Source: a virus
Lineage: Duplodnaviria > Caudoviricetes
Length of the DNA stretch: 64,000 nt
Direction: 5' to 3' (one strand)
Virus record (IMG/VR): IMGVR_UViG_3300025087_000034
Numbering within the stretch: position 1 is the stretch's first letter; each line of letters opens with the position of its first letter. The translations under genes and the position numbers were made by a program. Positions 35,838 through 60,682 of the stretch are shown here, piece by piece. The notes under the pieces were generated by a model. The model did not search any database. It saw nothing but the letters and a program-made list of their open reading frames with translations, and was not told the origin of the DNA.

Positions 35838-35848
35838 GGGTAAGAAAT

Positions 35849-37452: not shown

Positions 37453-37460
37453 GAGGGCAC

Positions 37461-38012: not shown

Positions 38013-38013
38013 G

Positions 38014-38418: not shown

Positions 38419-38446
38419 GTAACAAGATTAAGGAGTATTAATAACT

Positions 38447-39142: not shown

Positions 39143-39208
39143 AAATGGATACTAATGAGAGGGTGGAATTCAACATTAGTCGTGTACGTACACTCGCGTA
39201 GGTGATTT

Positions 39209-40475: not shown

Positions 40476-40477
40476 AT

Positions 40478-40525
40478 TTTTAGAGGCCTGAAAAATTTTA
40501 GGTATGCCACGAGGGATCGTTCCTT
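40478..40525 (+). repeat. Dispersed intergenic motif, copy B
   Basis: TTTTAGAGGCCTGAAAAATTTTAGGTATGCCACGAGGGATCGTTCCTT, homologous to 35330-35376. Confidence 0.7.
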
Positions 40526-40583
40526 AGTCGTCGAAAGGCTGTTTCAAAGGGCACGATGTTAGGTTAGCTAGGAGATATAGATA

Positions 40584-42933: not shown

Positions 42934-43625
42934 ATCAGGCCCCTGGAACAGAATGAAACCATACCACGGTTTTCTATCTTGGGTATCGTTTTATTTATGA
43001 CCGGTACTTTTTCATTATAAGTAGGGATGAGCCCATGAGTACTTAAACAATGCTGTACAGTAAATGGAAGAGACCCATCTATGAAGTTATATTTGTTCTG
43101 CCTTGTTCTTACCTGGTTATATTCTGGGTATGTTTTACTAATTCTACTAAACCTACCTAGAGCAGTGTTAGGTAGGAAATCACAGAATTTGAATGCTGGC
43201 TTGTCCTTTTCTACCCATCGAGACATAGAAAAGTTGGTTCCAGATAGGGACGAATTTTTTATCTGGGTTTCTATGAATGAACATTTATTAAATAGACTAT
43301 TTATAAAGGCACAGAGGTCGAAAACACACCTTATAAAGGTTATATTATTGAATATACAGTCGTATATAATGGAGTTTTCTATGTGTGTATCTAAGATAAC
43401 TCCATTTTGTATTCCAGAGTTTTTTGCATGTAAGCCTGAGATAATAGTATCTTTTATAGCTATTTTATAAGCTAGGCTATTTGTAATATATGGAATATAT
43501 ATTTTACAGCTGCCTGCTTCTAGATCGCCTAACTGTTTTTTATCTGCCTCTAAAGCTTCGATTATCTTGCCTTTAATGACCTGTTTGTTTATCGTGATAG
43601 CTGTGGCTGTAGGATTTGTTCTCAT
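42930..43625 (-). CDS. Pentapeptide-repeat protein
   Basis: NSIIYDCIFNNITFIRCVFDLCAFINSLFNKCSFIETQIKNSSLSGTNF. Confidence 0.85.
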   Translation of the reverse strand: MRTNPTATAITINKQVIKGKIIEALEADKKQLGDLEAGSCKIYIPYITNSLAYKIAIKDTIISGLHAKNSGIQNGVILDTHIENSIIYDCIFNNITFIRCVFDLCAFINSLFNKCSFIETQIKNSSLSGTNFSMSRWVEKDKPAFKFCDFLPNTALGRFSRISKTYPEYNQVRTRQNKYNFIDGSLPFTVQHCLSTHGLIPTYNEKVPVINKTIPKIENRGMVSFCSRGLI

Positions 43626-43656
43626 TGAATTCGTCTTGGGGTCTTTTAGATTGGGG

Positions 43657-44478
43657 TTAGTTGGACATCAATCTTAGAAGGCTATCAGCATAGATAGTCG
43701 CTGTTGTGGAGCTTTCATCTGTGAGACAAGGAGTAGTGTTTATTTCTAAAACATAGGCTTGTTTGTTATCTTTTGAGTAAACAATATCTACTGCTCCATA
43801 ATGTAGCTCAAATTTTTGTAGTGTTAATATGGATACCCTATTTATTAGGTCGATAACCTTAGGATCACTATATGAAGGGGCTAGAAAACTATAGCCATTG
43901 TCATGATTTTTTATAATAGAAGACTCCGTCTTTGTTGTGACTTTTTTTTCTGATAGTTTTGCTATGTAATAATCCTCAATTCTCTTAGGATTTAGTATGT
44001 TACTAAATACATGAGCCCTGAATTCCCTTGTATTTTTTATAAACTTTATAAAATGAGTGGCCCCTTGTAGTTCGGCACTTCTAGCTTCTTTCATATTTTC
44101 GCAAAACCAGAATCCAGAGGCTTTCATATGATAGGTTGTTCTTCCTATAACAGGGAACTCTGCTTTAGATATTTCTTTTGCACTAAGCCATAGTATAGGA
44201 GCAGGGATTCCCTTTGCTTTGAATCGTATTCTTGCTAGTCGTTTATTGGCACTAATTGCTATTTTAGAGGGATGGTTTATTATTGTAGGTTTACCTATAA
44301 TAATAAATATGGAAGAATTTCCCACATTTACTATATAATCGAACTCCCTCCCTTTTATTCTTTTTCCATCAGGTATCCCCTGTAGAACTTCATTGTTTTT
44401 ATCTGTTCCTTGTAAGGCAGTTACTAGGGCATTAGCAGACTGTGCTCCCTTTGCATTATGTAACACTAATATTTTCAT
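43657..44478 (-). CDS. ATP-grasp peptide ligase (phiEco32/YheC-D-like)
   Basis: FPVIGR, REFRAHVF, YGAVDIV, VLEINTTP with intact ExN. Confidence 0.88.
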   Translation of the reverse strand: MKILVLHNAKGAQSANALVTALQGTDKNNEVLQGIPDGKRIKGREFDYIVNVGNSSIFIIIGKPTIINHPSKIAISANKRLARIRFKAKGIPAPILWLSAKEISKAEFPVIGRTTYHMKASGFWFCENMKEARSAELQGATHFIKFIKNTREFRAHVFSNILNPKRIEDYYIAKLSEKKVTTKTESSIIKNHDNGYSFLAPSYSDPKVIDLINRVSILTLQKFELHYGAVDIVYSKDNKQAYVLEINTTPCLTDESSTTATIYADSLLRLMSN

Positions 44479-44487
44479 TATCTCTCC

Positions 44488-45216
44488 TTAGCTAAGTTTA
44501 CAATATATTCCTTGTGTATTAAAACTCCAGCGTAGTCTCTGTTCACAATTACTACAGCGTGTATATATATTATTTTTCTTAGTACAAGAAAAATTATAAA
44601 ATAGTTTATCTATGGTGTCTATGTGGGAGTCACATGAAGGACAATATCCAAAAAATATTCCCGGAGAGACACTATAATAGGTATCTTGTGTTCCCCCTTC
44701 TATATTAGGGGAGGCAGTGTTGAATCTTGTTACAACAAAAGCCTGAAATAGAGCTTTTTGTATAGAATTAGGTGTAGAATCTGGATTTATAAATAGGGGC
44801 ATAACACTAGAGTATATCTTTTCTAATATGAGGCCTATTTTGGAATCCTCTTCTTCATTTAGAGAGGATAGACTATAACTGTTGGGTATTTGTTCAGTAT
44901 TTATTGCATAATGCTTATATCCAGAAGGGAATTCTCTTACATCAATAATTCTCTTTTCTGTTTCTTTTAGCAGTTCTGTAAAAATACTACCACAAAAATC
45001 AGAATTTTTAACAACCACACTATTATAGTGGGTGTCTTTCTCTATACAGATAACTTCAGAGTTAAGAACCTTTGTAGGTATCTGACAGGTTTGGTATTTT
45101 TCTGCTTTTATTATACATAAGGTATCTTTATTAAGAGGACTTATTTTTATATTTAGGTTAGTTTCTTCCAGTTCTCTTCTAGATACTACTTTGTATATCA
45201 TTCCGGGTTTACTCAT
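44488..45216 (-). CDS. Hypothetical protein with C-terminal double zinc ribbon
   Basis: CPSC...CSNC near the C-terminus. Confidence 0.7.
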   Translation of the reverse strand: MSKPGMIYKVVSRRELEETNLNIKISPLNKDTLCIIKAEKYQTCQIPTKVLNSEVICIEKDTHYNSVVVKNSDFCGSIFTELLKETEKRIIDVREFPSGYKHYAINTEQIPNSYSLSSLNEEEDSKIGLILEKIYSSVMPLFINPDSTPNSIQKALFQAFVVTRFNTASPNIEGGTQDTYYSVSPGIFFGYCPSCDSHIDTIDKLFYNFSCTKKNNIYTRCSNCEQRLRWSFNTQGIYCKLS

Positions 45217-46015
45217 TTGAAATAAGTCTGCATATTCTCGGATAAGCTAGGGGTGAGTTAGAATAAGTGCTATTATTGTAGGGAAGTAGGTCAGTTGTGC
45301 ACATGCAAAAATTTAGTTCAAACGTACTCTTGTGGTCACAGTCAGAACATACTATGGTAAACTTATTTTCGTTTGTTACAGCTACTTCCACGTCTGATCT
45401 AAAAGTTAGAGTACTCCCACAATGGCTACATAGAGTATAAGCAGCACTAATTATAGAAGATACTATAAATTTGTGTTCTACTCCTTCCACAAAGGGTATT
45501 TCAGGAGGAGTAGTGTCCCAATTTGTGGCACAGTGGCCTCCAGCTTTTTTGTGATATTGATAGCCCACAAGCCTTTTTTGTATAAAATATTTTTGTATAT
45601 AAATAGGAAATTTGCTAATATTTATTTCTCTTCTTATTGTTTCAAATCCACTTAAAATTTCCAATGGAACCACTATTGGAATAGTATTAAAACGCAGTAG
45701 GGATGGTGTTAATGAATAGTTAAGAGGGTATAAGAATATTTTTTCTTTATACTCTTTTATAGGGCGAAATTCTTCCGGTAGAACGACAAAGATAATATGT
45801 TTCAGATTTTCTATTTCGGATTCTGCTAGGGTCATGACGAAGGAATCCAAAAGAGAGATAAGCTTTATATTTCCCTGGTTTTCTCGTATTGTTTCACCAA
45901 ACTTTAATTCTTCTGATTTTATCTTGAGTATGGTTCCACTAAAAGGTCTAGCTATTTTTGTCACTTTTGTTACCACCTTTTTTATAGTCTGTAGTATACC
46001 AACCAGTACCGACAA
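45209..46015 (-). CDS. Hypothetical protein with C-terminal double zinc ribbon
   Basis: CSHC...CSDC near the C-terminus. Confidence 0.7.
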   Translation of the reverse strand: MSVLVGILQTIKKVVTKVTKIARPFSGTILKIKSEELKFGETIRENQGNIKLISLLDSFVMTLAESEIENLKHIIFVVLPEEFRPIKEYKEKIFLYPLNYSLTPSLLRFNTIPIVVPLEILSGFETIRREINISKFPIYIQKYFIQKRLVGYQYHKKAGGHCATNWDTTPPEIPFVEGVEHKFIVSSIISAAYTLCSHCGSTLTFRSDVEVAVTNENKFTIVCSDCDHKSTFELNFCMCTTDLLPYNNSTYSNSPLAYPRICRLISNE

Positions 46016-46157
46016 GATGAAATGAGGTCGCCTGTATTTGAATTCGCATTTTTGACTTGCATTTAGGACAAACCTTGTCGTTTCTTTTATCTGATGCCTT
46101 TTGCTCTATTTCTCGTTCTCTACCACAATTTTCACACTTGAAAAGATAGAAAGGCAT
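45948..46157 (-). CDS. FmdB-family zinc-ribbon protein
   Basis: MPFYLFKCENCG...CPKC...SFHLVGTGWYTTDY. Confidence 0.88.
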   Translation of the reverse strand: MPFYLFKCENCGREREIEQKASDKRNDKVCPKCKSKMRIQIQATSFHLVGTGWYTTDYKKGGNKSDKNS

Positions 46158-47107
46158 TAAATATCCTCCGAAAAGAAAACTCGTATAAACCTGTCTTTTT
46201 TCAAGGCGACTTCAAGAACTGGTTTTATATGTGACGGTAAAGGAATCGTAGTTTTACTTTCTAATCCAAAGCCTGAGTACGATACAGCCGATGCAATGTC
46301 TTTTTGGCAGGCTCTTATTTTCGTTGTTACACCACTAAATTTATAAGGACATATTATAAGTTTAGCTTTCTCCGTATCTTCTATAATATTTCCCTCGCTA
46401 CAAATAAGTTCTGATATAATAAAGTCTTTAAACACTGCTTCTTTCCCTATTGTAGTACGAATAAGACTACAGGACACCGCCTTTACGTCCAGGATTTCAC
46501 AGCCAACTATACCTGAGTCTACTATTTTGGTAAGTAAAAGCATACATTCCGATAAAGTAGACCCTACAAAAGATACTTTTGACAGGGTACAAAAAAAGAA
46601 GTCACACTCGTGTATCTCCACCTCATTGAGACTGAGATCGTCTATTGTGGACTTAAAAAATGTACAATCATAGAATATTATCTTACCGTTATATTTGTGT
46701 CTAGCATCATAGATTCTTTCACTAAATTCACAGGCTATAAATTTGCAACCAGAAAAGGAAATAAACTCTATGTATTCAAAATCTGTAAAGGTACAATTAG
46801 CAAAGCTACAATTTATAAATTCTAATCCTGTGTTTGGGGAACATACTTGTGTAAACTCACAGTGGTCAAAATAGCAATCTCTATATTTACCCATAGTAGC
46901 CTGATGAGCACTAAGATAACAATCTGAGAACAGACAATTATAAAAATCTTCTTCTAAACTTGATAATAAACTAAAATCACATTTATCAAACGCTGTGTTC
47001 TCCTTACCATAATCAGACCAATTGTGTACACTTTTTTTACTTATGGTTTCATTCGTAATTATAAAGTCTTTTGTTAACTTTAATTTTTTATAGATATAGC
47101 CTTGCAT
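46157..47107 (-). CDS. Pentapeptide-repeat protein (track start 47230; ATG 47107 preferred)
   Basis: Long pentad array (NCSFANCTFTDFEYIEFISFSGCKFIACEF...). Confidence 0.85.
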   Translation of the reverse strand: MQGYIYKKLKLTKDFIITNETISKKSVHNWSDYGKENTAFDKCDFSLLSSLEEDFYNCLFSDCYLSAHQATMGKYRDCYFDHCEFTQVCSPNTGLEFINCSFANCTFTDFEYIEFISFSGCKFIACEFSERIYDARHKYNGKIIFYDCTFFKSTIDDLSLNEVEIHECDFFFCTLSKVSFVGSTLSECMLLLTKIVDSGIVGCEILDVKAVSCSLIRTTIGKEAVFKDFIISELICSEGNIIEDTEKAKLIICPYKFSGVTTKIRACQKDIASAVSYSGFGLESKTTIPLPSHIKPVLEVALKKDRFIRVFFSEDI

Positions 47108-47232
47108 GTGTGTTCTTGTTAACCTCTTTCTTGTGCTCCCATATAATATAGCGTTTTGCTGTCCAGCAGCAATAGCGAACATACTAACCAAGCCATAGAT
47201 AAGTTTCCTATAACATAAGAGCATCACCAATT

Positions 47233-47337
47233 TAAAAAGAGGTACAGCTCTAGTACCTACCCAAACGTAGGAACCACGTTGTGGTATCGTGGTGTGTTCA
47301 GGACGTGCTTTTTACACCATATAGGTCTTTTTCCTAT
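47233..47337 (-). terminator. Chain of short hairpins ending in a terminator-like stem plus U-run
   Basis: Minus-strand stems ATAGG/CCTAT, GGTGT/ACACC, CCACG/CGTGG, CCTAC/GTAGG, AGGTAC/GTACCT, then CTTTTT. Confidence 0.4.
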
Positions 47338-47382
47338 GCACCGGGGTTTCTATTCTAGCTATTATATATAGGAGCGTAATAA

Positions 47383-48456
47383 TCAATTTTGTGATTTCTG
47401 GCTTCTGGAGGCCACAACCGTTTGAATTCTATTTTCGAAATCCCTCTGTTTTTGTGTTATCGGAGCCACTTCCCTACCAAGTCTATCAGCCTGCCTAAGA
47501 ATAAATAGTGGAAACAAACTCAAATTATTCATGTCTTCCAACTTTAGATTCACCCTCTCAACAAAGCGCATAACCGTAGAATCTTTCCATTTTCTATCAT
47601 ATTGATACATATGATTAGATACCAGATGATATATAATTTTTCCTTCGTCAGAGTTGTGCAATTCAAGTCTATTTAAGATATTGGCTACTAATTTAGATCC
47701 CAAGACTTCGTGTTTATGAAAGGTGGCCCCTTTTTCATTTTTCCCCTTTGTACCTGGTTTTCCAACATCGTGTACTAGAGCAGCAAATTTTATAGTGTAA
47801 TCGTTCGTAGGGCACAAGTCACAGGCCATAAGACAATGGTCATATACAGTGAACTTGTGGTACAGTTCATTTTGTGTAATGCCAAAGCAATTAGATAATT
47901 CAGGGAGAATAATATCTAGAGCCCCCACAAGCCTTAAAAACTCTATTCCTGTCGAGGGTTTTGTTGATTTTATTAGTCTCTTTAGTTCTCTCCATATAAA
48001 TCTACCAGGAGTCTGTGCTAACTTTGCTACATTCTTACTTATAGAGAGGAGTAGCCTTTCTGATATAGAGAAACCGGTTTCCGCTTTCAAAGCTGCGGCT
48101 CTGATTATAAGTTGTGGTTTCTCAGCTAACTCCTGTTCTGGTTCGTGTACTGTTGTTATTCTTTTTTTCTCTATATCTTTCATAGCTCCATAAGGGTCTA
48201 TTATCTCCTTGGTTGAGGAGTTCAAGAGAAGGCCATCTAGTTTAAACGGCTGTATGGGTAGATACTTTGTTGGAGTACAGTGAGTTACGTGTTTTACTTT
48301 TATCCCTTTTGCAATTATTTGTTCCGAGGTGTCAAAAGAAACTAGGTAGACTTCTTCTGGAGTGAGGTCCATAATTAGCAAACATGCAGTGGTATAACTG
48401 AAATACAGGTTCTTGTTTCGGTATCCTTGTACCAGAGGTATAAGGCTATTTGTCAT
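47383..48456 (-). CDS. CCA-adding enzyme/poly(A) polymerase-derived protein with degenerate nucleotidyltransferase head and intact HD domain
   Basis: IIDPYGAMKDI, IWRELKRL, ILPEL, QNELYH...VYDH, AALVHDVGKP, HEVLG; GGxVRD, DxD and RRD motifs are absent. Confidence 0.82.
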   Translation of the reverse strand: MTNSLIPLVQGYRNKNLYFSYTTACLLIMDLTPEEVYLVSFDTSEQIIAKGIKVKHVTHCTPTKYLPIQPFKLDGLLLNSSTKEIIDPYGAMKDIEKKRITTVHEPEQELAEKPQLIIRAAALKAETGFSISERLLLSISKNVAKLAQTPGRFIWRELKRLIKSTKPSTGIEFLRLVGALDIILPELSNCFGITQNELYHKFTVYDHCLMACDLCPTNDYTIKFAALVHDVGKPGTKGKNEKGATFHKHEVLGSKLVANILNRLELHNSDEGKIIYHLVSNHMYQYDRKWKDSTVMRFVERVNLKLEDMNNLSLFPLFILRQADRLGREVAPITQKQRDFENRIQTVVASRSQKSQN

Positions 48457-49285
48457 CTTTGACTTTTTTCTCCGCTGATTTTAGGAGACCCCAAATAGCT
48501 TGGCGCGAAACTCTTCTAGGAGTAATACCTTCTGAAAAGACTACGTCCGCGATGTCTTCATTGTTGAGGCCTTGTTGATGAAGGACTAGTATAGAAGCCT
48601 TTTTCTTGCCCATATTTTCTCTTAGTTTTTCAACTAATTCATTTGCAGCAACATTATTTATTATGCTATCTTCACTAGTTATATGGTGTGACATTGCTGA
48701 CTCGTCGTCTGGAACTTCTATAGTTATACTTTCGTAGGCAAGGCTGACTATTGTTTCATAAGTGGTCTTCGAGTTCTTTGCCAGCTTATCTACCATTGCC
48801 TTTATACATCTTAACTTATCTAATGAACCGATAGAAAGTAGTAATTCTGCTTCGTGCTGCCAAACTCCTATTATTTCTCTAGGTTCTATATGACGACAGA
48901 ATAATGTATGTTCCTGTTCCAAGAGCCTAGTCATTCTATCTATATAGACCCTTGTTTTACTTATATAAATGGGGACAGATATAGATGTAGTATTTTTTAT
49001 GCAGTATTCATATAAACGACCTTTTATTCTTGTTATAGCATGTATATCAAAATTGGATGAACGTGTAGGATCAAAATGCCTTGAAGCTTCTATAAGCCCT
49101 ATTATTCCACACATTACAAGATCTTCATACTCTACCCCGGGTCTTACGTATTTTTCAGCCATAGTTAATACCAATTTTATATATTTTTTTATATCCTTTT
49201 CCTCTTTATTCTTTGGTATGTATCCATTAATTATATATGATATGTGTCTAAAAAATTCGGGTGACATTCTTTTGCTTCCAGACAT
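48446..49285 (-). CDS. sigma70-family RNA polymerase sigma factor, divergent
   Basis: Region 2-like EDLVMCGIIGLIEASRHFDPTRSSNF; region 4-like GLNNEDIA...VSRQAI. Confidence 0.82.
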   Translation of the reverse strand: MSGSKRMSPEFFRHISYIINGYIPKNKEEKDIKKYIKLVLTMAEKYVRPGVEYEDLVMCGIIGLIEASRHFDPTRSSNFDIHAITRIKGRLYEYCIKNTTSISVPIYISKTRVYIDRMTRLLEQEHTLFCRHIEPREIIGVWQHEAELLLSIGSLDKLRCIKAMVDKLAKNSKTTYETIVSLAYESITIEVPDDESAMSHHITSEDSIINNVAANELVEKLRENMGKKKASILVLHQQGLNNEDIADVVFSEGITPRRVSRQAIWGLLKSAEKKVKDDK

Positions 49286-49297
49286 TTTGGATCCTAT

Positions 49298-50284
49298 TTA
49301 GTGTGGGGCAAATTTTCTGCCTATTTCTATATAACCATTTTCTTTTAAGTATTCTACTCCTTTTTTGGATATTATCCTCCCTCTGCTAGTTCTTATAAGT
49401 AGACCTTGCTGTATAAGATACGGTTCTGTGCTATTTTGTATAGTTTCGGGGGATTCATTTAGCAATATAGATGTTGTATCAAGTCCTAGTGGAACCCCTG
49501 TTTCATACATAGTTTTTAAATATTTTATGTCAGTATATAATAGCCCATTTTTGTCTATTCCTATAATATTAAAAACTGAGGAACATTCATCCATAGTTAT
49601 AGTGTCTCTTTTTAACACCACAACAGCATCCCAAACACGATATAATAGGTTTACGACTATGCGAGGGACACCTCTTGCTCGAGAAGCGATAGCTTCCGCG
49701 GCATCTTGTGTTATCTGCATTTTATTTATTTCTGCATGTTTTATAGCTATTTGTGTAGTTTCTTCTAGGTTATAGGTTTTGAAGTGAAAACCCATTCTAA
49801 ATCTGTCCCTAAAAGGCTTTGATAGTTTACCGGCTAGCGTTGTAGCTCCTATGATAGTAAATTGTGGAACCCACATTTCCCAGTTTTCACCTGTGTATTG
49901 ATTTTTTGTAACAATATAGTGTTCTTCCATTGCTATACCAAGAGACTCTTGTCCATTTGTTGGAAGCCTGTGTATTTCGTCCAAAAATATTATTGTTGGT
50001 TTGATTTTACTTACCTTTAATCCTTCTTTTGTGTATCCCTCTACAGACAGTTTTTCTATGAGCTCATACACATCTTTAGATGTTTTTAGGCTCTCCGACG
50101 GAACCTTCAACATCCCTGCTCCTTGGTGTATAGCAAGAGCCTTCGACATAGTGGTTTTTCCACATCCAGAGGCACCTGTAAATAGAGTATGCGGTATAGC
50201 CTCATTATTTATTCTTGCTGCCTCACTGGCTATTGTTAATTGTAGCTTTATATTATTATTCCCTATTATATCATTAAATCTCAA
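49298..50284 (-). CDS. ruvB: Holliday junction branch migration ATPase RuvB
   Basis: FNDIIG, GASGCGKTT, FLDEIHRL, FTIIGATT, PFRDRF, ARGVPRI, EPYLIQQG..RTSRGR. Confidence 0.93.
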   Translation of the reverse strand: MRFNDIIGNNNIKLQLTIASEAARINNEAIPHTLFTGASGCGKTTMSKALAIHQGAGMLKVPSESLKTSKDVYELIEKLSVEGYTKEGLKVSKIKPTIIFLDEIHRLPTNGQESLGIAMEEHYIVTKNQYTGENWEMWVPQFTIIGATTLAGKLSKPFRDRFRMGFHFKTYNLEETTQIAIKHAEINKMQITQDAAEAIASRARGVPRIVVNLLYRVWDAVVVLKRDTITMDECSSVFNIIGIDKNGLLYTDIKYLKTMYETGVPLGLDTTSILLNESPETIQNSTEPYLIQQGLLIRTSRGRIISKKGVEYLKENGYIEIGRKFAPH

Positions 50285-50293
50285 AATTTCCTC

Positions 50294-50746
50294 CTACTGA
50301 TTTTGAACATTAACATTTGGTACCCACTTTGGGGCCGTTTTAATTAAGCAGAGAATTATTTTTTCATCCGTTTGGTATCCCCCCACTATCTTAAATCCAG
50401 CAGACCCAAATGTTTTTATCGACCCTTCGTTATCCCTTCTTACCATGGCATATATTAAGGGAGTCTGCGAGGACTTTATTCCGGCTTCCACTAATGTCTT
50501 CGCTATGCCTTGTTTTCTTAGCAACTCGGTTACACATAGGTGTTTCAACTCGGTAATATTGTAAGATTGTTTATTTACTCTTATACATCCCACGACAATA
50601 TTCTTGAATGTCTCTATTATGTATTCGTTTGAATTGCTTAGAATTTCGTCTATATCGTGGACGGTGCCCAGTTGGTTGTATTTATTTATTAGGGCAGTTA
50701 TTTGTACGGCTATTTTTGTATCTGTTAGTATTCGTCTAAAGCTCAC
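50294..50746 (-). CDS. GNAT-family acetyltransferase
   Basis: LKHLCVTELLRKQGIAKTL, NEGSIKTFGSAGF. Confidence 0.85.
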   Translation of the reverse strand: MSFRRILTDTKIAVQITALINKYNQLGTVHDIDEILSNSNEYIIETFKNIVVGCIRVNKQSYNITELKHLCVTELLRKQGIAKTLVEAGIKSSQTPLIYAMVRRDNEGSIKTFGSAGFKIVGGYQTDEKIILCLIKTAPKWVPNVNVQNQ

Positions 50747-51746
50747 TTAAACTTCCTAGATTGATAAGGCCGGCTTCTTTTAGTAGATCTGCTGCTTTCT
50801 TAGCATTGTCATCGGAAATATTACCTATCAGATTTAACAAAGATTCCTTGGAAAACTTACGACCAAATCTCAATATATTTCTAAAGTAATCTGACACAGT
50901 AAACAAAACCTCGCTATCTTGTAGGGAGGGTGAACACGTAGCATTCATAATAAATACCCTGCCATCCTTGTCAGATACCAAATCGACAGCGGCGAAATCT
51001 AATCTGTATTTATTCTGTAAGATTTTTGCTATATTCATTATAGTAGTATCTATACCTTCTTTTACAAATTGTTGTTCCGACCATGCAACAATGGCTTTTG
51101 TAGTGTCTTCTGTTATGAGTCCTTTTTCAAACATTTCGGTCAAGGCAGTCTTTACTTCTTCGCTTCTATTTAACATAAGAGTCTCTTTGTGGGAGAGTAA
51201 TTTCTTAGATGAGGAGATTCTACCAAGTATATTGTTCCCCATTATATCATGGCCGACGAATACTCGGTCAAAACCAGCCCTGTCAATGTGGTTGCAAGCA
51301 AAGGTAGCAGAGGGAATAGTCGTAGCTTGATTATAGTCGGTAGCATTTTTTATAACAGCTAACAAATCTCCTGACTTGGCTAGTATATCGAATTTTGTGC
51401 TACCAAAAAAGTCTCTCATACTAGTGTAGTTTCTATTAACTATCTTTCTATAATTACCGGTTAGTAATTCATGTTGAGTGCTTACGTCTGTTAGAAAAGC
51501 CTGTCTATGTGCAAGTAAGTCTGCCGAGCTTGGTAGATTGAACATCCTTGTTTCGTCTATTTCTACTCCCTCTGTATCCACCAATCCGTAAAAGATTATT
51601 TTAGTTTCCGGCTCTCGTATGATATTGCGAAGTTCCTCCGTTAATTCCGCGAAGGAACCAACGGCTATCTCGGCATCTACAGCCTGAGCTAAAAATATAG
51701 CAGAAGTGTCTACGGAGTGGGTACACCAAACTATTGTTGTTGACAT
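50736..51746 (-). CDS. Degenerate ATP-grasp-like protein
   Basis: RVFV...LDFAAVDLVSDKDGRVFIMNATCSP resembles the ATP-grasp C-terminal motifs but lacks ExN. Confidence 0.6.
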   Translation of the reverse strand: MSTTIVWCTHSVDTSAIFLAQAVDAEIAVGSFAELTEELRNIIREPETKIIFYGLVDTEGVEIDETRMFNLPSSADLLAHRQAFLTDVSTQHELLTGNYRKIVNRNYTSMRDFFGSTKFDILAKSGDLLAVIKNATDYNQATTIPSATFACNHIDRAGFDRVFVGHDIMGNNILGRISSSKKLLSHKETLMLNRSEEVKTALTEMFEKGLITEDTTKAIVAWSEQQFVKEGIDTTIMNIAKILQNKYRLDFAAVDLVSDKDGRVFIMNATCSPSLQDSEVLFTVSDYFRNILRFGRKFSKESLLNLIGNISDDNAKKAADLLKEAGLINLGSLSEL

Positions 51747-51756
51747 CTCTTTGCTC

Positions 51757-52986
51757 CTAAAGGGATTTTCCGGCTAACCAACCGCGTTTAAGGTCTAATT
51801 GAGAGGCCTTTAATGGTACTTGTTTCCTGCAGCATATCTTTATAAACCCATCTATTTCACTCTTATATAAAGGATAGGTAGACATTTGTTTTAGTTTATT
51901 GTGTATGGATAAAACTAGGGAAGTTGGAACATCTGATATGGAAGAGTTATTTACTATATTTCGTACATATTCTGTATCCATACAATCAAAGTATCTCTGT
52001 ATATTGTTCTTATTGTCAACTAGCATTAAAAAATCTTTATTGTAATTGTTGTCTTCATATTTTTTCCATATTTCTTCAACCACTGCTTTTGTGGTTGCTA
52101 TGGTAACCAAAGCAAGTGTTGGATGCACAAACCAGATTCCACTTGGAACTCGCCATTCAAATTTTATGTCACCACTTCTCATTGCTCCAAAACAACCGTA
52201 GTCCTTTTCTTTTAGTCTGCGTTCCGAGGCTACTGGGGTATCCAATCTTACGAGAGGAAGAGCTACAAACTCGTCTAATATTCTTACTATTCTAGCTTGT
52301 ATCATTTTATCCGGATGCTTTGCCCCACCTTCTATGTTTGGCAGGCCTAAATGAATGTGCCCTCCTATGTAATAACGACGGTCCATGTCTGGGTGCCAGA
52401 AACTAGCCCCACCCACCCAATCATAGTTTTCTATTTTGTGCCCCTCTGTTTCAAATATATTTTTCATGTTTTCTACTAGTTGCTTAGAGTTGTTACTAGG
52501 AGGCGGCCTCATTTCAGCGCAAGGACCATCACTACCCAGAACAGCCTGTTTTTTAGCCGGGTCATCAAATTCATATCCTAGACCATCATCTCCATATTCT
52601 GCCGTACCGTCTTTATTAACTAGAATGAACTCTGGGTCACATCCTATCATTATTTTTTCAACTTGTTCAGAGACCCATATTTTTTTATATTTATCTATTT
52701 TTCCCATTATTTTATTATAGGTTTTTGTGGTCACAAACCCTATAGTTTTAGTATTTTCCATCCCTTCATTAGCAAGGTCTTCATTAATAGCTTGACCTAT
52801 TTTTAATTTTATGTTTTCTAATACGCCTTCTACTTTTATATATGTAGTATCTCCCCCTGATGGTCTATAATGTAATCGTGCTCTTTTAGAAAGTCTTATA
52901 AAATCATGCTCCAGTCTATTTCTTTCTGCTCGTAGATTCATTATTTCTGATGGTTTCAAAAATAATTGCATTTTTGTTTCCCGCAT
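51757..52986 (-). CDS. phiEco32-like COOH-NH2 ligase type 2 (copy B)
   Basis: IGCDPEF, GSDG, EMRP, GGHIHLG, FEWRVPSG. Confidence 0.9.
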   Translation of the reverse strand: MRETKMQLFLKPSEIMNLRAERNRLEHDFIRLSKRARLHYRPSGGDTTYIKVEGVLENIKLKIGQAINEDLANEGMENTKTIGFVTTKTYNKIMGKIDKYKKIWVSEQVEKIMIGCDPEFILVNKDGTAEYGDDGLGYEFDDPAKKQAVLGSDGPCAEMRPPPSNNSKQLVENMKNIFETEGHKIENYDWVGGASFWHPDMDRRYYIGGHIHLGLPNIEGGAKHPDKMIQARIVRILDEFVALPLVRLDTPVASERRLKEKDYGCFGAMRSGDIKFEWRVPSGIWFVHPTLALVTIATTKAVVEEIWKKYEDNNYNKDFLMLVDNKNNIQRYFDCMDTEYVRNIVNNSSISDVPTSLVLSIHNKLKQMSTYPLYKSEIDGFIKICCRKQVPLKASQLDLKRGWLAGKSL

Positions 52987-53003
52987 TATAAGTCTCCCAA
53001 AGA

Positions 53004-54863
53004 TTAGTTCATAGTTTTATTAGTTGGGGTCTTAAATACACTAAGATTCAATTCCTTAGCGGCACTAATTTCGTCTATGTCAAGGACGTCTGCTAGTTTA
53101 TTCTCGTCAATTTGTCCAGTCTCTGCAAACAAATTTTGCTTAGATAACAAAGCAGACAAAACTAATCGTAGATTCCGCACCAATTTAGTTGCGGATTCCA
53201 ACTTGATATTTAATGATATTCTGTCTTCCGTATTTTTGAAGAAGGTCTTTTCCATACTGACTACTTTTATTTTGAGGTCTTCAACCTTCTTTTTCTCCTC
53301 AAGGGCTTCGTCTGCAGACACTGTTTCATATTCACTGGTGCCTTGTTCATAACCTGCACTATAACCATATGCGTATCCTTCGGGAAAGATCTTTTCATAG
53401 CAAGCAACCAAAATCTTTAAGGCCTCTGTTTCATCTTCAATATCTACTAACCAGGACTTTAATAATTCTTTTACATCTACCTCGCCAATTTTCGCTATAG
53501 TAGCCTTACCTTCAGTTTCTATAGCAACACTATGTAAACACTCTAATCCAAAGGCTATTCGTTCATCCCAAGAATAGGAGCACGAAGGGTCGTCTTCCAC
53601 TATTTCAGTTTCTATTTCTATATCCTCGTAAACATCCTCATTGTCTGCACATATACCAGGCAAAGTTATCTCTAACAAACTTCCTTCCTCGTCTTTAGAC
53701 TTATCTTCTATTGTGTTATTTCCACTAGGATAGGATGCATTAGTTTCGCTAGGAAAGGAGGTACTAAATTTTTCTGTAGCAGCCCTGGTATCCTTAGTTG
53801 CATTAGTTTTTACTCCATTGTCATATTTTGTGATAGTCTGTGGGGTACCCCTAGCACAGCTGTATATTTTTTCTACTTTTATTAGATCCTCTGGTATTGT
53901 TTTGGAGTTTACTTCTGTATCCAAATCCAGTATGAAGACTCCTGATTCTATAGAGGAGGGACTGCTTACTGTCTTACCATACCAAGTCTTACTAAGGTAG
54001 GGAAAGACCTCCCCCACATTTCCTAGTTCTATTTTGGTACCCTCTTTAGTATTTACTATCATGCTAGTCTTGTATTCTCTATTACGCCAGCGGTCATAAT
54101 TTTCCATGGCTGCTACTAAGTATTTTCTTTCCGATACCATAACCAAGCAACCTAATTCAGGGATATAGGCACCCTCCATGGGTTTTTGACCCTCCCTCAG
54201 GCAACCTACTTTGGATGGGTTCCCTGTTGTATAGGACATTACGGCAAATTCCCCAATAAGTTCGTTGTGTGTAGTTTTTAAGTTTTCTATTGTAAAGTTG
54301 TTTTTATATTCTGCTATGAGTTGGAAAATAATTTCACTATCTACTTTTCCTATTCTTTCGATTCCATGTTTTGCAAATAAGGCATCATCATTGGATATAC
54401 TACCGTTATGAACACCGACTATGGTATCTTGGGTTAATCTTTTGTTTTCTTTATCTAGATTTTTTGAAGTAATTATTACTGGGTGGTTGTTATGCGGATT
54501 ATGTGGGTCCCCCTTCGTACTTTTTCTTACGTGTCCGAGGATTTGCTTTATTCTTTTCTCCCCAATTTTTCTAAACCACATATCCATAAACCAAGAAAAA
54601 TTAGTTTCTTTATCCGTCGGATTTATATACTCGTCTCCCCAGCTACTAGGATCTCTAGCAAAGAAAGAGGAGGCTACTGGTTGTTTTACTATCAATGTTT
54701 TCTTATCTTCCCATAACAAAGCTACCCCAGTAGCGTCTGCTCCACGAGGTTCCATTGCTACCAAGGTTTCCAATAGTAGAAATCTTTGTATCAAGACCTC
54801 TACAATTGGGTCTATAGATTTTTCCGTATTGTTATATGAAAAAAGACCAAATATTCCGCACAT
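53004..54863 (-). CDS. Class II (Ntn) glutamine amidotransferase with long acidic C-terminal extension
   Basis: MCGIFG N-terminal nucleophile, RGADATG, GHVRKST, NNHP, HNGSI, VDSEII. Confidence 0.9.
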   Translation of the reverse strand: MCGIFGLFSYNNTEKSIDPIVEVLIQRFLLLETLVAMEPRGADATGVALLWEDKKTLIVKQPVASSFFARDPSSWGDEYINPTDKETNFSWFMDMWFRKIGEKRIKQILGHVRKSTKGDPHNPHNNHPVIITSKNLDKENKRLTQDTIVGVHNGSISNDDALFAKHGIERIGKVDSEIIFQLIAEYKNNFTIENLKTTHNELIGEFAVMSYTTGNPSKVGCLREGQKPMEGAYIPELGCLVMVSERKYLVAAMENYDRWRNREYKTSMIVNTKEGTKIELGNVGEVFPYLSKTWYGKTVSSPSSIESGVFILDLDTEVNSKTIPEDLIKVEKIYSCARGTPQTITKYDNGVKTNATKDTRAATEKFSTSFPSETNASYPSGNNTIEDKSKDEEGSLLEITLPGICADNEDVYEDIEIETEIVEDDPSCSYSWDERIAFGLECLHSVAIETEGKATIAKIGEVDVKELLKSWLVDIEDETEALKILVACYEKIFPEGYAYGYSAGYEQGTSEYETVSADEALEEKKKVEDLKIKVVSMEKTFFKNTEDRISLNIKLESATKLVRNLRLVLSALLSKQNLFAETGQIDENKLADVLDIDEISAAKELNLSVFKTPTNKTMN

Positions 54864-54878
54864 GTACGAGGGACTCCT

Positions 54879-55553
54879 TTATCCGAGGTCCAAGGGGATT
54901 TCTGTAGAATATTCTGGGCAAAAAGATTCGACCCAAAAAAATTCTTTTAATCCGTGGTTTGTAAATATGATATCACCTAGAGAAAGGGAAGTTGAATTTT
55001 TACGGTATAGTTTAGCCCATATGCCTTCGCATTTTTGCCATTCTTCACAAAGTACGTCCTCTGTTCTGGATAGAGATAACAAAATATTAATTGGATCCTT
55101 TACAGAATTAAGCCCCTCTTTGTCCCAAAAAAGTACGTAGGTATTTCTATACTTTTTTCTTAGAGTCGGCAGTATCATTTTTTTTATTTTTGCAAGGTCT
55201 TTCACTATCGTGTAGTCTTTATATAGGGGTAAAATAGCCTCTATGTCGGTGTATTCTACTAGATAACATGTAAACTTTTTGTAGCTGACCTTTTGTAATT
55301 CTTCAGTCTTAATTGTCTGGTATACGTATTTATTGTGGGGAACTTTAGTGGCAATAGGTAAAGAATGAGGAAAGAATACCAATGTTTCAGATTGTTTTTT
55401 ATAGTCCGTAGTAAAACCCAAAGGTGAAGCTATACAGGAGTTAGTCAGTGCACTATTATCATAGACAGCAATTATATCTATATTATTAAACGGAAATGGG
55501 TATGGATATATTAGTTTGGTCCCTAATTTTAGATTTGGCAGTAGGGAAGGCAT
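54879..55553 (-). CDS. Hypothetical protein within the ligase cluster
   Basis: 224-aa ORF co-oriented between the amidotransferase genes. Confidence 0.7.
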   Translation of the reverse strand: MPSLLPNLKLGTKLIYPYPFPFNNIDIIAVYDNSALTNSCIASPLGFTTDYKKQSETLVFFPHSLPIATKVPHNKYVYQTIKTEELQKVSYKKFTCYLVEYTDIEAILPLYKDYTIVKDLAKIKKMILPTLRKKYRNTYVLFWDKEGLNSVKDPINILLSLSRTEDVLCEEWQKCEGIWAKLYRKNSTSLSLGDIIFTNHGLKEFFWVESFCPEYSTEIPLDLG

Positions 55554-56395
55554 TTTTCAACCCAATCGGATGAATAGCCTTTGGTAGTCATAGGCTCAAG
55601 AATAAGGGCCTCATTTTTCTTTAGGAGGATTTCTTGAGCATCTAAGAATATATGCCCCGCTTTATTAGTGTCTATGCCTATAATAGTGTCATTTAATAGT
55701 TGTTCATTGTTTGATATGAAGACTAAGTCCTGCCATTTCTTTGTTTTTATTGTCAGATTATCCGATTTTTTTGCGATAAATAGTCTAATTGTGTCTGTAG
55801 CAAACACTATATAAAAATAGTTACCATGACATATAGAGGCAGCCTTCTTAAAGGCTTCTTTTATAGGTGCTCCTTCTACAATGAACTTTCCTGTCAAAGC
55901 GAGAACCAAATCAACTTTGCTGGGTAATGTTTGTAGGTTTATACGATATTGCTTGGCTATTTTTTCTACGGATTTAATATTACCCATGCCAAACCCTATC
56001 ATATTACCCATTTTTATAGGGGCTGTTTCTTTGTGGGTTTCTTTTGTTAGTATTCCGGCTATCAATGCAGTTGGGTTAATTATATCATTGTTTATTATAT
56101 TTAAGAACTTGAGGTTATCTACTAGTTTTCCTTTAGAAAGAATTTCTTTTATAGTAATTAGTCCTGTTTTGTATGGTCTGACAGAGTTGGCATTTTGAAA
56201 GATGGAATTAGTACTATGGAGAGTAGAATTAAATACAGATAAGGAGCATAGTGGATTTTCCATGCCAAGTAAAGCAATGTTAAAGAAGGTTTTTATCACA
56301 GTTTGCTTATCAGTAGCTGGGGAAGATTGAACAGCATGGGTATATTCTTTGGGCTTAGACAAACAAATGAGTAGGGTGGTGTTATGGTCGTACAT
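55529..56395 (-). CDS. Degenerate class II amidotransferase-like (Ntn-fold) protein
   Basis: APIKMGNMIGFGMG, KVDL, ASICHGNY...LFIAK...VFISNNEQLL resemble GATase-2; no N-terminal Cys. Confidence 0.5.
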   Translation of the reverse strand: MYDHNTTLLICLSKPKEYTHAVQSSPATDKQTVIKTFFNIALLGMENPLCSLSVFNSTLHSTNSIFQNANSVRPYKTGLITIKEILSKGKLVDNLKFLNIINNDIINPTALIAGILTKETHKETAPIKMGNMIGFGMGNIKSVEKIAKQYRINLQTLPSKVDLVLALTGKFIVEGAPIKEAFKKAASICHGNYFYIVFATDTIRLFIAKKSDNLTIKTKKWQDLVFISNNEQLLNDTIIGIDTNKAGHIFLDAQEILLKKNEALILEPMTTKGYSSDWVEKCLPYCQI

Positions 56396-57986
56396 ATGTA
56401 CCTGACTCTTTATCCCAAATTACGCCGTTGGTTGTTTGTAAATATAAAATCCCAAGTTTTACTTGTTCTGTTTTAGCTCCTATAATTTCACTAACAGTGC
56501 TTATCCACTCTAGTTCGTTAGAACACTCATCAATAAGGGCGGTATCTATTGTTTCTGAGATTTTATCAAGAACTATCTTACTTATTTTGTTTTTGTTCTT
56601 CACTAAATCTTTTTCTATCTTGTCCCAAGAGTCGCCTTCACTTAACCTATACGAACAAGGTCGCTCGGCTAATTCTAGTAGTATGTTAAAGGAATTTCCG
56701 TGTCCTCTAAGTTCCGGCTTTAATAGATTAACCATCTCTTTTGCTTGTAATCTAACCTTTTCCACGTAGGGTTCAAAGTTCTTGGTATTACTATGTCTAG
56801 GTCCCCCATAGTCTCCATAATTGTTTAAAAGTTTTTCTTGTATTTCACTTGCCTCATCCATATAGTCTGTATCGCCACTATGTAAAATACCATAGGTACT
56901 GAAAGACACGGCCTTTATAAGTAGCGAATATACAAGGAGGGATATTGCTGTTATAGCGGAAGGGGACAGCAGGCCATCACAGAAGCGGGCTTCTAGGTGT
57001 AGTTTTTCTATAGCTTCTTTGGAATCAAATTCTATATTGGAGTAGTTTATAAAAGAATATCTGCCCTTGGTGCCATCTGACTCGCTTATTTCTTTTATAA
57101 TAGATTTCATATTTCTACGTAGAGCGGAAAACTTTAGTATTGTGTGTCTGAATTTTGCCCATCTAGTAAGAGTATCCTTGGAAGTACCCGCAGAGGAGAT
57201 CCAAACTAGGGCATTATGGTAACGTCTGATAAGTTGGTGAAAGTTTGTCAATATAATTTCCGGCATAGCTCTTTCGAGTTCTATTATATTATGTTTATTA
57301 TTGACTCCCTTTTTGTATATTGGTATCACTTCCCCCCTATCGTTGAAACCAATATTATAGTATCCTGATAAAAGATGTATGTGGGTGCTAGCTCTTTCAT
57401 CTACGTAAGCACCCTTAGCTATACATTTGTCTATAATATTCTTTGTTTGTTCTAATAACATATCGTAGCTTACTCTCCTACCCACCGTTGTAACTTCAAC
57501 GCCTCCGTCTCCCTTTAAGCTGCCATCTTTTACGATTTGGAATACTCCGTTATCGCCAATCTTAAGAAGGTTTTCCGATGGAGTCAGTTCCTTAACAAGC
57601 TTAGCTCGTACATGGGAGGGATTTTTATTCTCGTCCAGAAAGAGGGCACATTTGGTACAGTCCCTTATGGCATCCTTGCATGTAAAGCAAGGAGAGTAAA
57701 ATTCCACGCAGTATATTCCTGGGCATTCATATTTTTGTCTTAGAGTACAATGCTTATAGGAAGCACATTTGGTGAAACACTTGGAGTTTTCTTTTTGGGG
57801 ATGAGAGCACGGGCATAGAAAGCTCTTACCATTACAGTTGCCTGTTTTTTCTAGCAGGTTTAGTTCGTGTTCGAGCCCTATTTTTAGAGTAGCTTCCAAT
57901 ATTCTTTTCCAATAATTAGCTTCCTCCGATAGCAAACAGGGCCTGTTCTTTTTCTTTGTGAATACTAACTTCTGATTTTGTTTCAT
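56382..57986 (-). CDS. Putative amidoligase (glutamate-cysteine ligase/GS fold) with Cys-rich insertion
   Basis: KIGLEHE, KDGSL, GVEVTT, STHIHL, RYSFIN, LEARFCDG; 12 Cys inserted after the first motif. Confidence 0.85.
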   Translation of the reverse strand: MKQNQKLVFTKKKNRPCLLSEEANYWKRILEATLKIGLEHELNLLEKTGNCNGKSFLCPCSHPQKENSKCFTKCASYKHCTLRQKYECPGIYCVEFYSPCFTCKDAIRDCTKCALFLDENKNPSHVRAKLVKELTPSENLLKIGDNGVFQIVKDGSLKGDGGVEVTTVGRRVSYDMLLEQTKNIIDKCIAKGAYVDERASTHIHLLSGYYNIGFNDRGEVIPIYKKGVNNKHNIIELERAMPEIILTNFHQLIRRYHNALVWISSAGTSKDTLTRWAKFRHTILKFSALRRNMKSIIKEISESDGTKGRYSFINYSNIEFDSKEAIEKLHLEARFCDGLLSPSAITAISLLVYSLLIKAVSFSTYGILHSGDTDYMDEASEIQEKLLNNYGDYGGPRHSNTKNFEPYVEKVRLQAKEMVNLLKPELRGHGNSFNILLELAERPCSYRLSEGDSWDKIEKDLVKNKNKISKIVLDKISETIDTALIDECSNELEWISTVSEIIGAKTEQVKLGILYLQTTNGVIWDKESGTYVRP

Positions 57987-59040
57987 GTTTCAACCATTTA
58001 AGTATGAGTGGTGCCTCGTGCTCCTCGGGTTTATAACTTATGTTTTGCATATATTCACCAGCTAGGTTGCCAATATTTTCTTCTATTTTTTTCATTTCTT
58101 CTTTCATCTTATTCTTATTTCTACTGTAGTACATATCTTGTACTTTAGTTGTATCTGGTAATTTATATAGTTTAGCTATGTAATCTTTGTCAGATATTTT
58201 TTCTGTTCTTTTCCAAGCAAGGCTTTCTTTATAAACTGTGTTTAGGATGTTTTCCATAAGGACAAAAGAAGTTGTTAGTAGGCTTAGTGCAAGTCGTGGG
58301 GACTTCAAATAATATCCCCCTGGGGTTCTATACTCCAAAGTTCTTCTACTTAAGCGGTAGTCTCCTAACTTGCCATAATCTTTTGACAATCTTCTACTAT
58401 CATTGCTATCTATAAAAGCACTTGGAATACCAATATAGTAATCTAATATGGACACCATATTCTTTATTATTTTATCAGTGTTATTTGGGGCAAATAGAAG
58501 AAGGTCTTCAGGAAGACCAAGGTGAACGTGAAAACCACATACACGATTATACAGACAAGACCCCGCAATGGGAAACAAGCCTTTCGGTAGTGTAGTATAA
58601 ATTTTTAATACTTGGTTTTTTAGATTTTCCAGGTGCTGCTCCGGAGATAAAGCAAAATCTGGACGTAATTCCCCTAATTCGCCATCACACCCTATTTGGC
58701 TGTCGAATGGAAGGACGGAAGAGGCATCTACTAATGTTCCTTTACGATTTACAATAAAGAATTCAGGGTCGGACCCTATTGTTAGATCGTGCTTCTCTAT
58801 ATATATGTTTTTTCCTGGATTGTATATTATAGGGGATAATACGTTGACAAATATATTCTTATTCCCGTGAGAGACAATATCTTCTTTTATAGCAGGGCAA
58901 ACTAATAAACTAAATTTTCCAACCGCGGTATCAAATATTAACCAATCACCATGGTCGATACCATAAGATAGCATTATTTCTCTTGGTACTCTAACCTGGT
59001 GCATTGCGCATGAAGTAGACGGAACAGCAGTAAGAAACAT
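57916..59040 (-). CDS. phiEco32-like COOH-NH2 ligase type 2 (copy A)
   Basis: IGSDPEF, GCDG, ELRP, GFHVHLG, GKLGDYR, LEYRTPG. Confidence 0.9.
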   Translation of the reverse strand: MFLTAVPSTSCAMHQVRVPREIMLSYGIDHGDWLIFDTAVGKFSLLVCPAIKEDIVSHGNKNIFVNVLSPIIYNPGKNIYIEKHDLTIGSDPEFFIVNRKGTLVDASSVLPFDSQIGCDGELGELRPDFALSPEQHLENLKNQVLKIYTTLPKGLFPIAGSCLYNRVCGFHVHLGLPEDLLLFAPNNTDKIIKNMVSILDYYIGIPSAFIDSNDSRRLSKDYGKLGDYRLSRRTLEYRTPGGYYLKSPRLALSLLTTSFVLMENILNTVYKESLAWKRTEKISDKDYIAKLYKLPDTTKVQDMYYSRNKNKMKEEMKKIEENIGNLAGEYMQNISYKPEEHEAPLILKWLKHETKSEVSIHKEKEQALFAIGGS

Positions 59041-60425: not shown

Positions 60426-60682
60426 CAAATCTTCAACGCGAGTACCCCGAGCTTTAGCTCTGGGGAGGAAGCGCTCCTCCTTGTTGTATTAGTAAAGTTT
60501 TACGACCTTTTAACCAAACAGTAGTCATGGCTTTAGGTCACTTATGATTCGTAATTAGCTGGTTTGTTATCCCCAGTCTTCCTAGATTTTACTTGAGTAA
60601 TGCTTTGGCTTTCCTTTTTTGGAATTATTTCCTAGTAAGCAAGGACTTGAAAGCCCCCGTTTTTAGGCGGGGGGTTATTTAT
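60426..60682 (-). mobile_element. 257-bp non-autonomous (MITE-like) derivative of the IscB element
   Basis: Minus strand begins ATAAATAACCCCCCGCCTAAAAACGGGGGCTTTCAAGTCCTTGCTTACTAGG (left end), holds iscB scraps and ends CCCCAGAGCTAAAGCTCGGGGTACTCGCGTTGAAGATTTG (right end). Confidence 0.88.

Follow-up and report, generated by a model that had tools for sequence, protein, structure and literature searches.

The stretch analysed here (the window) is a 64,000-nucleotide (nt) part of the IMG/VR record IMGVR_UViG_3300025087_000034. It carries on its minus strand, between positions 50294 and 59040, a block of eight genes coding for carboxylate-amine ligases of the glutamine synthetase (GS) fold, class II glutamine amidotransferases (GATases) and associated proteins, with one more gene, for an ATP-grasp ligase, located further downstream. 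By homology, this cluster is an expanded jumbo-phage relative of the phiEco32/LUZ24 cassette, which is known from sequence alone. The reading that we favour, with a probability of about 0.55, is that the cluster is a variant of the known cassette and ligates amide bonds onto a macromolecule. The accessory domains of its ligases, two natural losses of catalysis and a conserved pair made of one ligase and a short GATase are new here; the extra domains found on the three ligases are of types usually binding proteins or nucleic acids.

The source record is a 133-kb contig, judged to be approximately 58% complete; the same proteins were also found on a contig of 258 kb. All nine genes listed by the first-pass annotation (the eight-gene block and the ATP-grasp gene at 43657-44478) were found on the minus strand at the coordinates given below, and their families were supported by Pfam, PHROG and fold matches. 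Pfam names four of the eight block genes: two COOH-NH2 ligases of PF14395, a class II GATase and a GNAT acetyltransferase. The contiguous block is 50294-59040, where the eight genes are tightly spaced, with intergenic distances of -71 to +17 nt; the span 43657-59040 given by the same annotation additionally includes seven unrelated genes (RuvB-like, sigma factor, HD/CCA-like, pentapeptide-repeat protein, zinc ribbon and two unknowns).

The synteny survey proposed for the cluster was performed with eight relatives, located on contigs of up to 320 kb, of each of which about 21 kb was visible. The block order was kept in every relative inspected, at identities of 29-53%: helicase, ligase A, a ligase of 533-567 amino acids (aa), short GATase (276-296 aa), an optional ORF (160-374 aa or none), long GATase (526-675 aa), ligase B, a grasp-like protein (323-379 aa), GNAT, RuvB-like protein and sigma factor. 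The exceptions were the grasp-like protein, absent from L012, and the GNAT, absent from L003, L004 and L005. A single-chain RNA polymerase of about 1,050 aa is encoded upstream in several relatives. The conserved order and this polymerase identify the block as a clade-wide module of a jumbo-phage lineage, and not of phiEco32-like podoviruses. The term phiEco32-like, used by the first-pass annotation, is therefore correct for the cassette, which is homologous, but not for the genome, which belongs to a jumbo phage whose mini RNA polymerase is a single chain.

Two genes of the block code for COOH-NH2 ligases, ligase A (374 aa, 57916..59040) and ligase B (409 aa, 51757..52986), which matched PF14395 with E 1.4e-20 and 5e-24, respectively, and are similar to each other (26% identity, E 9e-23). 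Each protein consists of an N-terminal double-psi beta-barrel (DPBB), formed by approximately residues 1-85 in ligase A and residues 3-108 in ligase B, followed by a core of the GS/GCS2 fold, which spans residues 110-403 in ligase B. At E <= 1e-5, 46 relatives of ligase B were obtained (27-52% identity). Ligase A retains all the columns invariant over 46 ligase A and B sequences, namely D-P-E, E..R, H-x-H and E-x-R. The AlphaFold2 (AF2) model of ligase B had a predicted local distance difference test (pLDDT) score of 93.6, and its core matched the structures 1tt4 (Z 17.6), PafA (Z 15.7) and glutamate-cysteine ligase (GCL; Z 15.6). For ligase B, a PDB sequence search gave nothing useful and a single-protein scan of viral contigs found nothing.

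The N-terminal barrels were recognised both from sequence profiles and from structure. A profile built from the N-termini of both ligase families (A5) matched DPBB chains, among them 7dvf (E 3.6e-8), and the chains matched are designed DPBBs derived from VCP-like ATPases. The N-domain of ligase B (residues 3-108) superimposed on the designed reDPBB_sym1 over 87/87 residues (Z 11.5, root mean square deviation (rmsd) 2.2) and on the N-domains of a mycobacterial AAA ATPase, PEX1, CDC48A and VAT over 82-92 residues (Z 9.6-10.5); the DPBBs of expansin and kiwellin scored below these AAA+ N-domains (Z 7.6-9.2), and NSF-N gave Z 8.2. Both COOH-NH2 ligases thus have an N-terminal double-psi barrel of the Cdc48-N type, a feature that is new here. 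An AbrB/SpoVT-like identity had been considered for these N-termini and was dropped, as the profile and structure matches point to the double-psi barrel.

The third ligase (534 aa, 56382..57986) had no Pfam match, and PF12224 (Amidoligase_2) does not recognise it. Its AF2 model, obtained from 31 homologs (pLDDT 88.8), matched over residues 29-455 plant GCL (Z 19.6), the YbdK-like chain 1tt4 (19.4), Dop (16.4), PafA (15.8) and glutamine synthetases (approximately 13). The profile of this family aligned with that of phiEco32 gp84, a Pfam-certified Amidoligase_2 protein, over the DGSL...E...H-x-H core (hhalign probability 78%, E 1.7e-5), and its structural neighbours in the Atlas were Amidoligase_2 clusters. 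Although PF12224 gives no match, the alignment to gp84, the Atlas neighbours, the fold and the conserved adjacency to a short GATase gene are all compatible with an Amidoligase_2-like protein. For this ligase also, the PDB sequence search returned nothing useful and the single-protein scan of viral contigs found nothing. The first-pass count of three GS-fold ligases was confirmed, two by PF14395 and the 534-aa protein by its AF2 fold and the gp84 profile match: the GS/GCS2 fold is supported by Z 17.6-19.6 to 1tt4 and GCL, and all three proteins retain the invariant D/E, H-x-H and E-x-R columns of the metal/ATP site.

Two accessory regions distinguish the 534-aa protein. A Cys-rich insert (approximately residues 45-120) is kept in the long forms of the family, and its Cys pattern is preserved in the L003 ortholog (47% identity). 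Residues 467-534 form a C-terminal winged helix, which matched best the putative DNA-binding protein 1xd7 (Z 9.1, 60 residues, rmsd 2.0), followed by Z-alpha domains and many winged helices of transcription factors and other DNA-binding proteins (Z 6.8-8.2). The signal at the sequence level is weak, with the MCM winged helix at E 0.085. The start of the gene is overlapped by the last 23 codons of ligase A, over 71 nt (57916-57986); in relatives the overlap is of 0-41 nt.

An exhaustive search with the 534-aa ligase showed the family to comprise 199 representative clusters. Unrelated phage contigs carry shorter forms, of about 430 aa, which are again followed by a class II GATase, and the pair of ligase and short GATase is the most widely conserved unit. 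In one unrelated phage contig, which codes for DnaB, primase, MazG and NADAR proteins (L014:6525-10445, and also L015), a 432-aa form of the ligase adjoins a DUF1256 protein and precedes a protein of 282 aa that matched GATase_4 weakly; these may be a minimal form of the ligase-GATase pair.

In the window, the short GATase of this pair is degenerate. The 288-aa protein encoded at 55529..56395 was identified as an ortholog of the short stand-alone class II (N-terminal nucleophile, Ntn) GATases: it occupies the same slot as the intact 276-296-aa enzymes of the relatives, shares their C-terminal DW motif and matched the L005 ortholog in BLASTP (E 1.4e-14), so that motif, slot and similarity all support its descent. 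In an alignment of 16 sequences (A3), 15 of the 15 relatives start with M-C and keep GHTR..T, NNHP, HNG and DSE; the 288-aa protein has lost all of these. A 10-residue N-terminal extension places the Cys aligned with the nucleophile at residue 11, and the protein has neither the N-terminal Cys nucleophile of class II GATases nor the residues of the glutamine site. The first-pass annotation had called it Cys-less; the protein is indeed degenerate, with its catalytic motifs lost, but Cys11 does align with the nucleophile, though it is not N-terminal. An alternative start exposing Cys11 was considered and rejected: the codon before the Cys is ATT, there is no ribosome-binding site and the other catalytic motifs are gone. 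The protein had no Pfam or PHROG match and a word-based homolog search returned only itself.

Besides the long GATase described below, no further GATase_6 match was found in the 133-kb record, and hence no spare intact short copy. Every sampled word of the stretch 50294-59040 was present in 11 metagenome runs from groundwater or soil (5 studies, 2015-2017), which may stem from one campaign; no RNA dataset was listed among the runs containing it. The dead short GATase is therefore a standing form of the phage population and not an assembly error. In a phage collection, neither megablast with the entire span nor tblastn with ligase B gave a match. Judging from the aligned sequences, catalysis by the short GATase appears to have been lost only in this lineage, where it would have become dispensable. 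In the intact short GATases, the best PDB sequence match was the glutaminase domain of GlmS (E 2e-12), and in intact GATases the Arg and Asp residues that contact glutamine, at its free alpha-carboxylate and alpha-amine, are retained. Co-fold prediction of the 534-aa ligase with the 288-aa protein gave a score of 0.00, which weighs neither for nor against binding.

The second GATase of the block, the long one (619 aa, 53004..54863), is intact: it matched GATase_6 (E 6e-9) and GATase_7, starts with MCGIFG and keeps RG.DATG, GHVR..T.G, NNHP, HNG and DSE. A PDB sequence search with its N-domain returned nothing useful. After the Ntn domain (approximately residues 1-290) come a low-complexity acidic linker, a short C-terminal module that is conserved and a tail predicted to be helical. 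This C-terminal half (53004-53900) comprises a linker rich in Thr, Ser, Glu and Asp and the motif FPEGYAYG (FPEG[YF]A.G in close relatives), through which the protein might dock onto the double-psi barrels. Between the two GATase genes lies a variable slot, occupied here by an orphan ORF of 224 aa (54879..55553) and in relatives by ORFs of 0, 160, 249, 292, 334 or 374 aa. The orphan ORF had no Pfam or PHROG match and no similarity to the slot ORFs of the relatives, and its Atlas model (pLDDT 0.28) was unusable.

The second loss of catalysis concerns the ATP-grasp protein of the block. The Atlas model of this 336-aa pseudo-enzyme (50736..51746) gave template-modelling (TM) scores of 0.60-0.65 over 250-270 residues to clusters of RimK, LysX and YheC/D, and local BLASTP aligned its C-terminal strand region with the intact ATP-grasp (E 2e-4). 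A PDB sequence search returned nothing useful; the L003 ortholog is 31% identical. As the first-pass annotation had noted in calling it ExN-less, the E-x-N metal site is replaced, by N-A-T; the protein has also lost the loop that corresponds in the alignment to the G-rich segment of the intact copies. The ExN-less state is common to five genomes, of which four (the window, L003, L005, L006) read N-x-T and the fifth, L010, reads N-x-I. In L011 the in-cluster ortholog is intact, with E-V-N and the loop, and matches the intact ATP-grasp (E 2e-16), and in L012 the gene is absent. The last gene of the block codes for the GNAT acetyltransferase (150 aa, 50294..50746; Acetyltransf_1, E 2.7e-7), which 7 of 9 relative contigs have at this position.

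An intact RimK-like ATP-grasp ligase (273 aa, 43657..44478; phrog_2599, E 3e-29) is encoded 5.8 kb downstream of the block. It retains E-I-N, is a homolog of phiEco32 gp80 (E 4e-10) and probably represents the active version of the protein that is dead within the cluster. Its orthologs were found in L003, L005, L006 and L010, the same four relatives that have a dead in-cluster copy. This distribution, seen in the 21-kb loci, fits replacement by a paralog, and the RimK-like protein appears to have taken over the function of the in-cluster ATP-grasp.

The gene for the RimK-like protein is itself part of a second conserved block (41995-47230), which consists of genes for a pentapeptide-repeat protein, a zinc ribbon of 69 aa, two Cys-rich proteins of 268 and 242 aa that have CxxC pairs close to the C-terminus, the RimK-like ATP-grasp and two more pentapeptide-repeat proteins. 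This order recurs in the P0022 and P0012 contigs, L005 and L006, and the same genes are found rearranged in L003 and L004. The pentapeptide proteins could be substrates of the RimK-like ATP-grasp.

The two degenerate genes are the fastest-evolving members of the block, with identities of 21-26% for the short GATase and 33-35% for the grasp-like protein; the corresponding values for these pairs of genomes were 48-53% for ligase B, the 534-aa ligase and the long GATase and 38-42% for ligase A. Both degenerate genes are still full-length open frames. The first-pass annotation had seen in them two intact/degenerate pairs, whose pseudo-enzymes might serve as scaffolds. Two degenerate enzymes are indeed present, but the pairing is no design feature: all 15 relatives examined have an intact short GATase, and the in-cluster grasp is intact in L011 and absent from L012.

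In the mechanism that we propose, each GS-fold ligase would turn a carboxylate, most plausibly the gamma-carboxylate of a Glu, into an acyl-phosphate and couple an amine to it. The bond formed would most likely be a gamma-glutamyl or isopeptide bond, as for glutamate-cysteine ligase, YbdK, PafA and the gamma-glutamyl-amine synthetases, and successive steps may take place on one acceptor held by the accessory domains. The Ntn GATase could supply ammonia to the ligase-activated carboxylate, or trim gamma-glutamyl amides; the ATP-grasp may add further residues, and the GNAT may cap a free amine. The acceptor is most likely a protein or peptide, of the phage or of the host; a cell-wall precursor is less likely. 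A protein or peptide is favoured because the barrels resemble the N-domains by which unfoldases bind partners or substrates, and because PafA and Dop are among the best matches of the ligase cores.

Several points weigh against this reading. The chemistry is inferred from fold families only. The winged helix, with its matches to DNA- and Z-DNA-binding folds, and the neighbouring genes for single-stranded DNA-binding protein (SSB), helicase, RuvB-like protein, sigma factor and RNA polymerase would fit a nucleic-acid target equally well. The GlmS match of the intact short GATases speaks for true glutamine hydrolysis, but does not tell whether ammonia is donated or gamma-glutamyl groups are trimmed. 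No Pup-like tag or acceptor was obvious when the small ORFs near the block were read. Finally, the gamma-glutamyl cyclotransferase (GGACT/AIG2, PF06094) known from the small-phage cassette was not found in the 133-kb record, approximately 58% complete, under conditions in which control genomes matched.

A possible but rather improbable alternative is that the cluster makes a small molecule, that is, a free gamma-glutamyl peptide or amide (glutathione-like, polyamine-amide-like, a signal or an anti-defence compound), and that the accessory domains only assemble the enzymes. Enzymes acting on free substrates are indeed among the closest solved folds (glutamate-cysteine ligase, the YbdK-like 1tt4, glutamine synthetase and gamma-glutamylmethylamide synthetase), the glutamine-binding Arg and Asp are retained in the intact GATases, and the synthesis of secondary metabolites is a common task of linked ligases from these families (PMC4431377). 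However, the ligases have conserved modules of macromolecule-binding types (two DPBBs, one winged helix, one Cys-rich insert), a need not expected for a soluble metabolite, and the block contains no gene for a transporter or exporter.

It is unlikely that the cluster serves nucleic-acid hypermodification, in which the ligases would couple an amine or ammonia to a base with a carboxyl group, in phage DNA or else in RNA or tRNA, while the polymer is held by the winged helix and the barrels. The matches of the winged helix to Z-alpha and bacterial DNA-binding domains (Z 6.8-9.1) and the position of the block between the SSB/helicase and the RuvB-like/sigma/HD-CCA-like genes are compatible with it. 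In viromes, amidoligase and amidotransferase genes co-occur with thymidine-hypermodification genes (PMC8989533), and ATP-dependent amide ligation on a DNA base is established for CmoY, which acts on 5-carboxymethylcytosine (PMC12783734). CmoY is, however, an AsnB-type ligase and not of the GS fold, winged helices mediate protein contacts too, and of 16 restriction enzymes, 11 cut the DNA of a LUZ24-like phage that has the small cassette (PMC11945000). Furthermore, the 133-kb record, about 58% of the genome, contains no ThyA-type hydroxymethylase, 5-hmdU DNA kinase, TET/JBP, C5-methyltransferase or TGT/DpdA (searched with PF00303, PF18723, PF12851, PF00145 and PF01702, of which PF12851 and PF18723 matched no control genome either), and the phage encodes ThyX and dUTPase. 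We hold it doubtful that the GS-fold ligases act directly on nucleic acid, as in an amide-type hypermodification of DNA or RNA with the winged helix and barrels as polymer-binding modules. If true, they would include the first GS-fold amide ligase known for a nucleobase, and a widespread phage cassette would gain a product.

The least probable alternative is cell-wall remodelling, with ligases building unusual peptide links on peptidoglycan precursors and so blocking superinfection or preparing lysis: such a role is the published prediction for the homologous cassette, as quoted in two reports (PMC11945000, PMC10580990), and other DPBB types (expansin, kiwellin) bind glycans, but the barrels here are closer to AAA+ N-domains than to the expansin type, and the block has no Mur-ligase, transpeptidase, membrane or lysis genes, its neighbours being replication and transcription genes.

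SSB and helicase genes flank one side of the block, the helicase lying directly upstream; the RuvB-like ATPase, the sigma factor and the HD/CCA-like protein follow downstream with equally tight spacing, and the first larger gap, of 152 nt, is found after the HD gene. The block is probably co-transcribed with these replication and transcription genes. In the promoter scan, sites were no more numerous than in shuffled sequences, and terminator-like sites were uninformative on the limits of the operon. Upstream from the helicase gene, a 260-nt gap free of ORFs contains two G+C-rich hairpins with T-rich tails (60461-60483 and 60654-60673). The HD/PolyA_pol_RNAbd protein (357 aa, 47383-48456) has no nucleotidyltransferase head; at the same position the distant relatives L010 (15922-17409) and L011 (16012-17424) encode a full-length CCA-type enzyme of 470-495 aa (PolyA_pol + RNAbd + HD + tRNA_NucTran2_2). 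On the plus strand, at 34512-41312 and converging on the minus-strand block, lie genes for a ClpP protease, two HNH endonucleases, a nuclease resembling archaeal-type Holliday-junction resolvases, ThyX (Thy1, E 1e-40) and dUTPase.

The cassette was predicted in 2009 and is carried by hundreds of phages. The accessory domains described here point away from a free metabolite and offer baits for the acceptor. The two natural knock-outs show which activities are dispensable or replaceable, namely the short GATase and the in-cluster ATP-grasp, the latter being dead wherever the second, RimK-like copy was seen. The pairing of a GS-fold ligase with a short GATase, conserved far beyond the clade, marks a core unit.

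The closest known system is the phiEco32/LUZ24 cassette, which in phiEco32 (gp77-gp88) comprises gp86 (PF14395), gp84 (Amidoligase_2), gp83 (a 676-aa long GATase with a long C-terminal extension), gp80 (ATP-grasp) and gp77 (GGACT). It is labelled a "putative peptidoglycan modification module" in two papers, where the prediction of Iyer et al. 2009 is quoted: unusual peptide links, possibly against superinfection (PMC11945000, PMC10580990). The first-pass annotation knew of no demonstrated product, and no paper reporting one was found in the searchable literature. Its description of the cluster as the best candidate for an undescribed system is partly right, but too strong for an expanded variant of a cassette already known from sequence.

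Both clusters include a PF14395 ligase, a GS-fold ligase that is an Amidoligase_2 protein in phiEco32 and resembles one here, a long class II GATase whose C-terminal extension is non-catalytic, and an ATP-grasp; both are phage-borne and set among early and replication genes. By alignment, gp83 has the same two-part build as the long GATase described here, and gp86 matches ligases A and B with E 1e-5 and 1e-6, respectively. As the first-pass annotation had stated, the present cluster is the more elaborate one, the phiEco32 module having a single PF14395 ligase, one Amidoligase_2, one long GATase and one ATP-grasp. Two DPBB-bearing COOH-NH2 ligases are found here and one in phiEco32, and gp86 (268 aa) has no barrel, its first residue aligning to residue 81 of ligase A. 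The third ligase differs as well: PF12224 misses it, and its 534 aa include the Cys-rich insert and the winged helix. The stand-alone short GATase, dead in the window, and the GNAT are extra, and the one ATP-grasp of phiEco32 corresponds here to an in-cluster copy without E-x-N and an intact gp80 homolog 5.8 kb away. The host genomes also differ, that of a jumbo phage here and that of a 77-kb podovirus in the case of phiEco32.

Among cellular enzymes, EgtA/EgtC and PuuA/PuuD are pairs of a gamma-glutamyl ligase and a GATase-type amidohydrolase that function in small-molecule pathways. The pair of the 534-aa ligase and the short GATase resembles them by analogy only, homology not extending beyond the level of the fold. 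PafA, which makes a gamma-glutamyl isopeptide bond on protein, and Dop share with the ligases the GS/GCS2-type fold (Z 15.7-15.8 to PafA and 14.6-16.4 to Dop), and the ligases described here carry a partner-binding type of domain. PafA and Dop differ in that there is no similarity at the sequence level and no proteasome or Mpa-type partner here, and a protein substrate is inferred for the phage enzymes. With Cdc48/p97, VAT, PEX1 and NSF, AAA+ proteins whose N-domains bind partners or substrates, the N-domains of the ligases share the barrel fold across the whole domain; the barrel that is joined in those proteins to an AAA+ motor is fused here to a GS-fold ligase.

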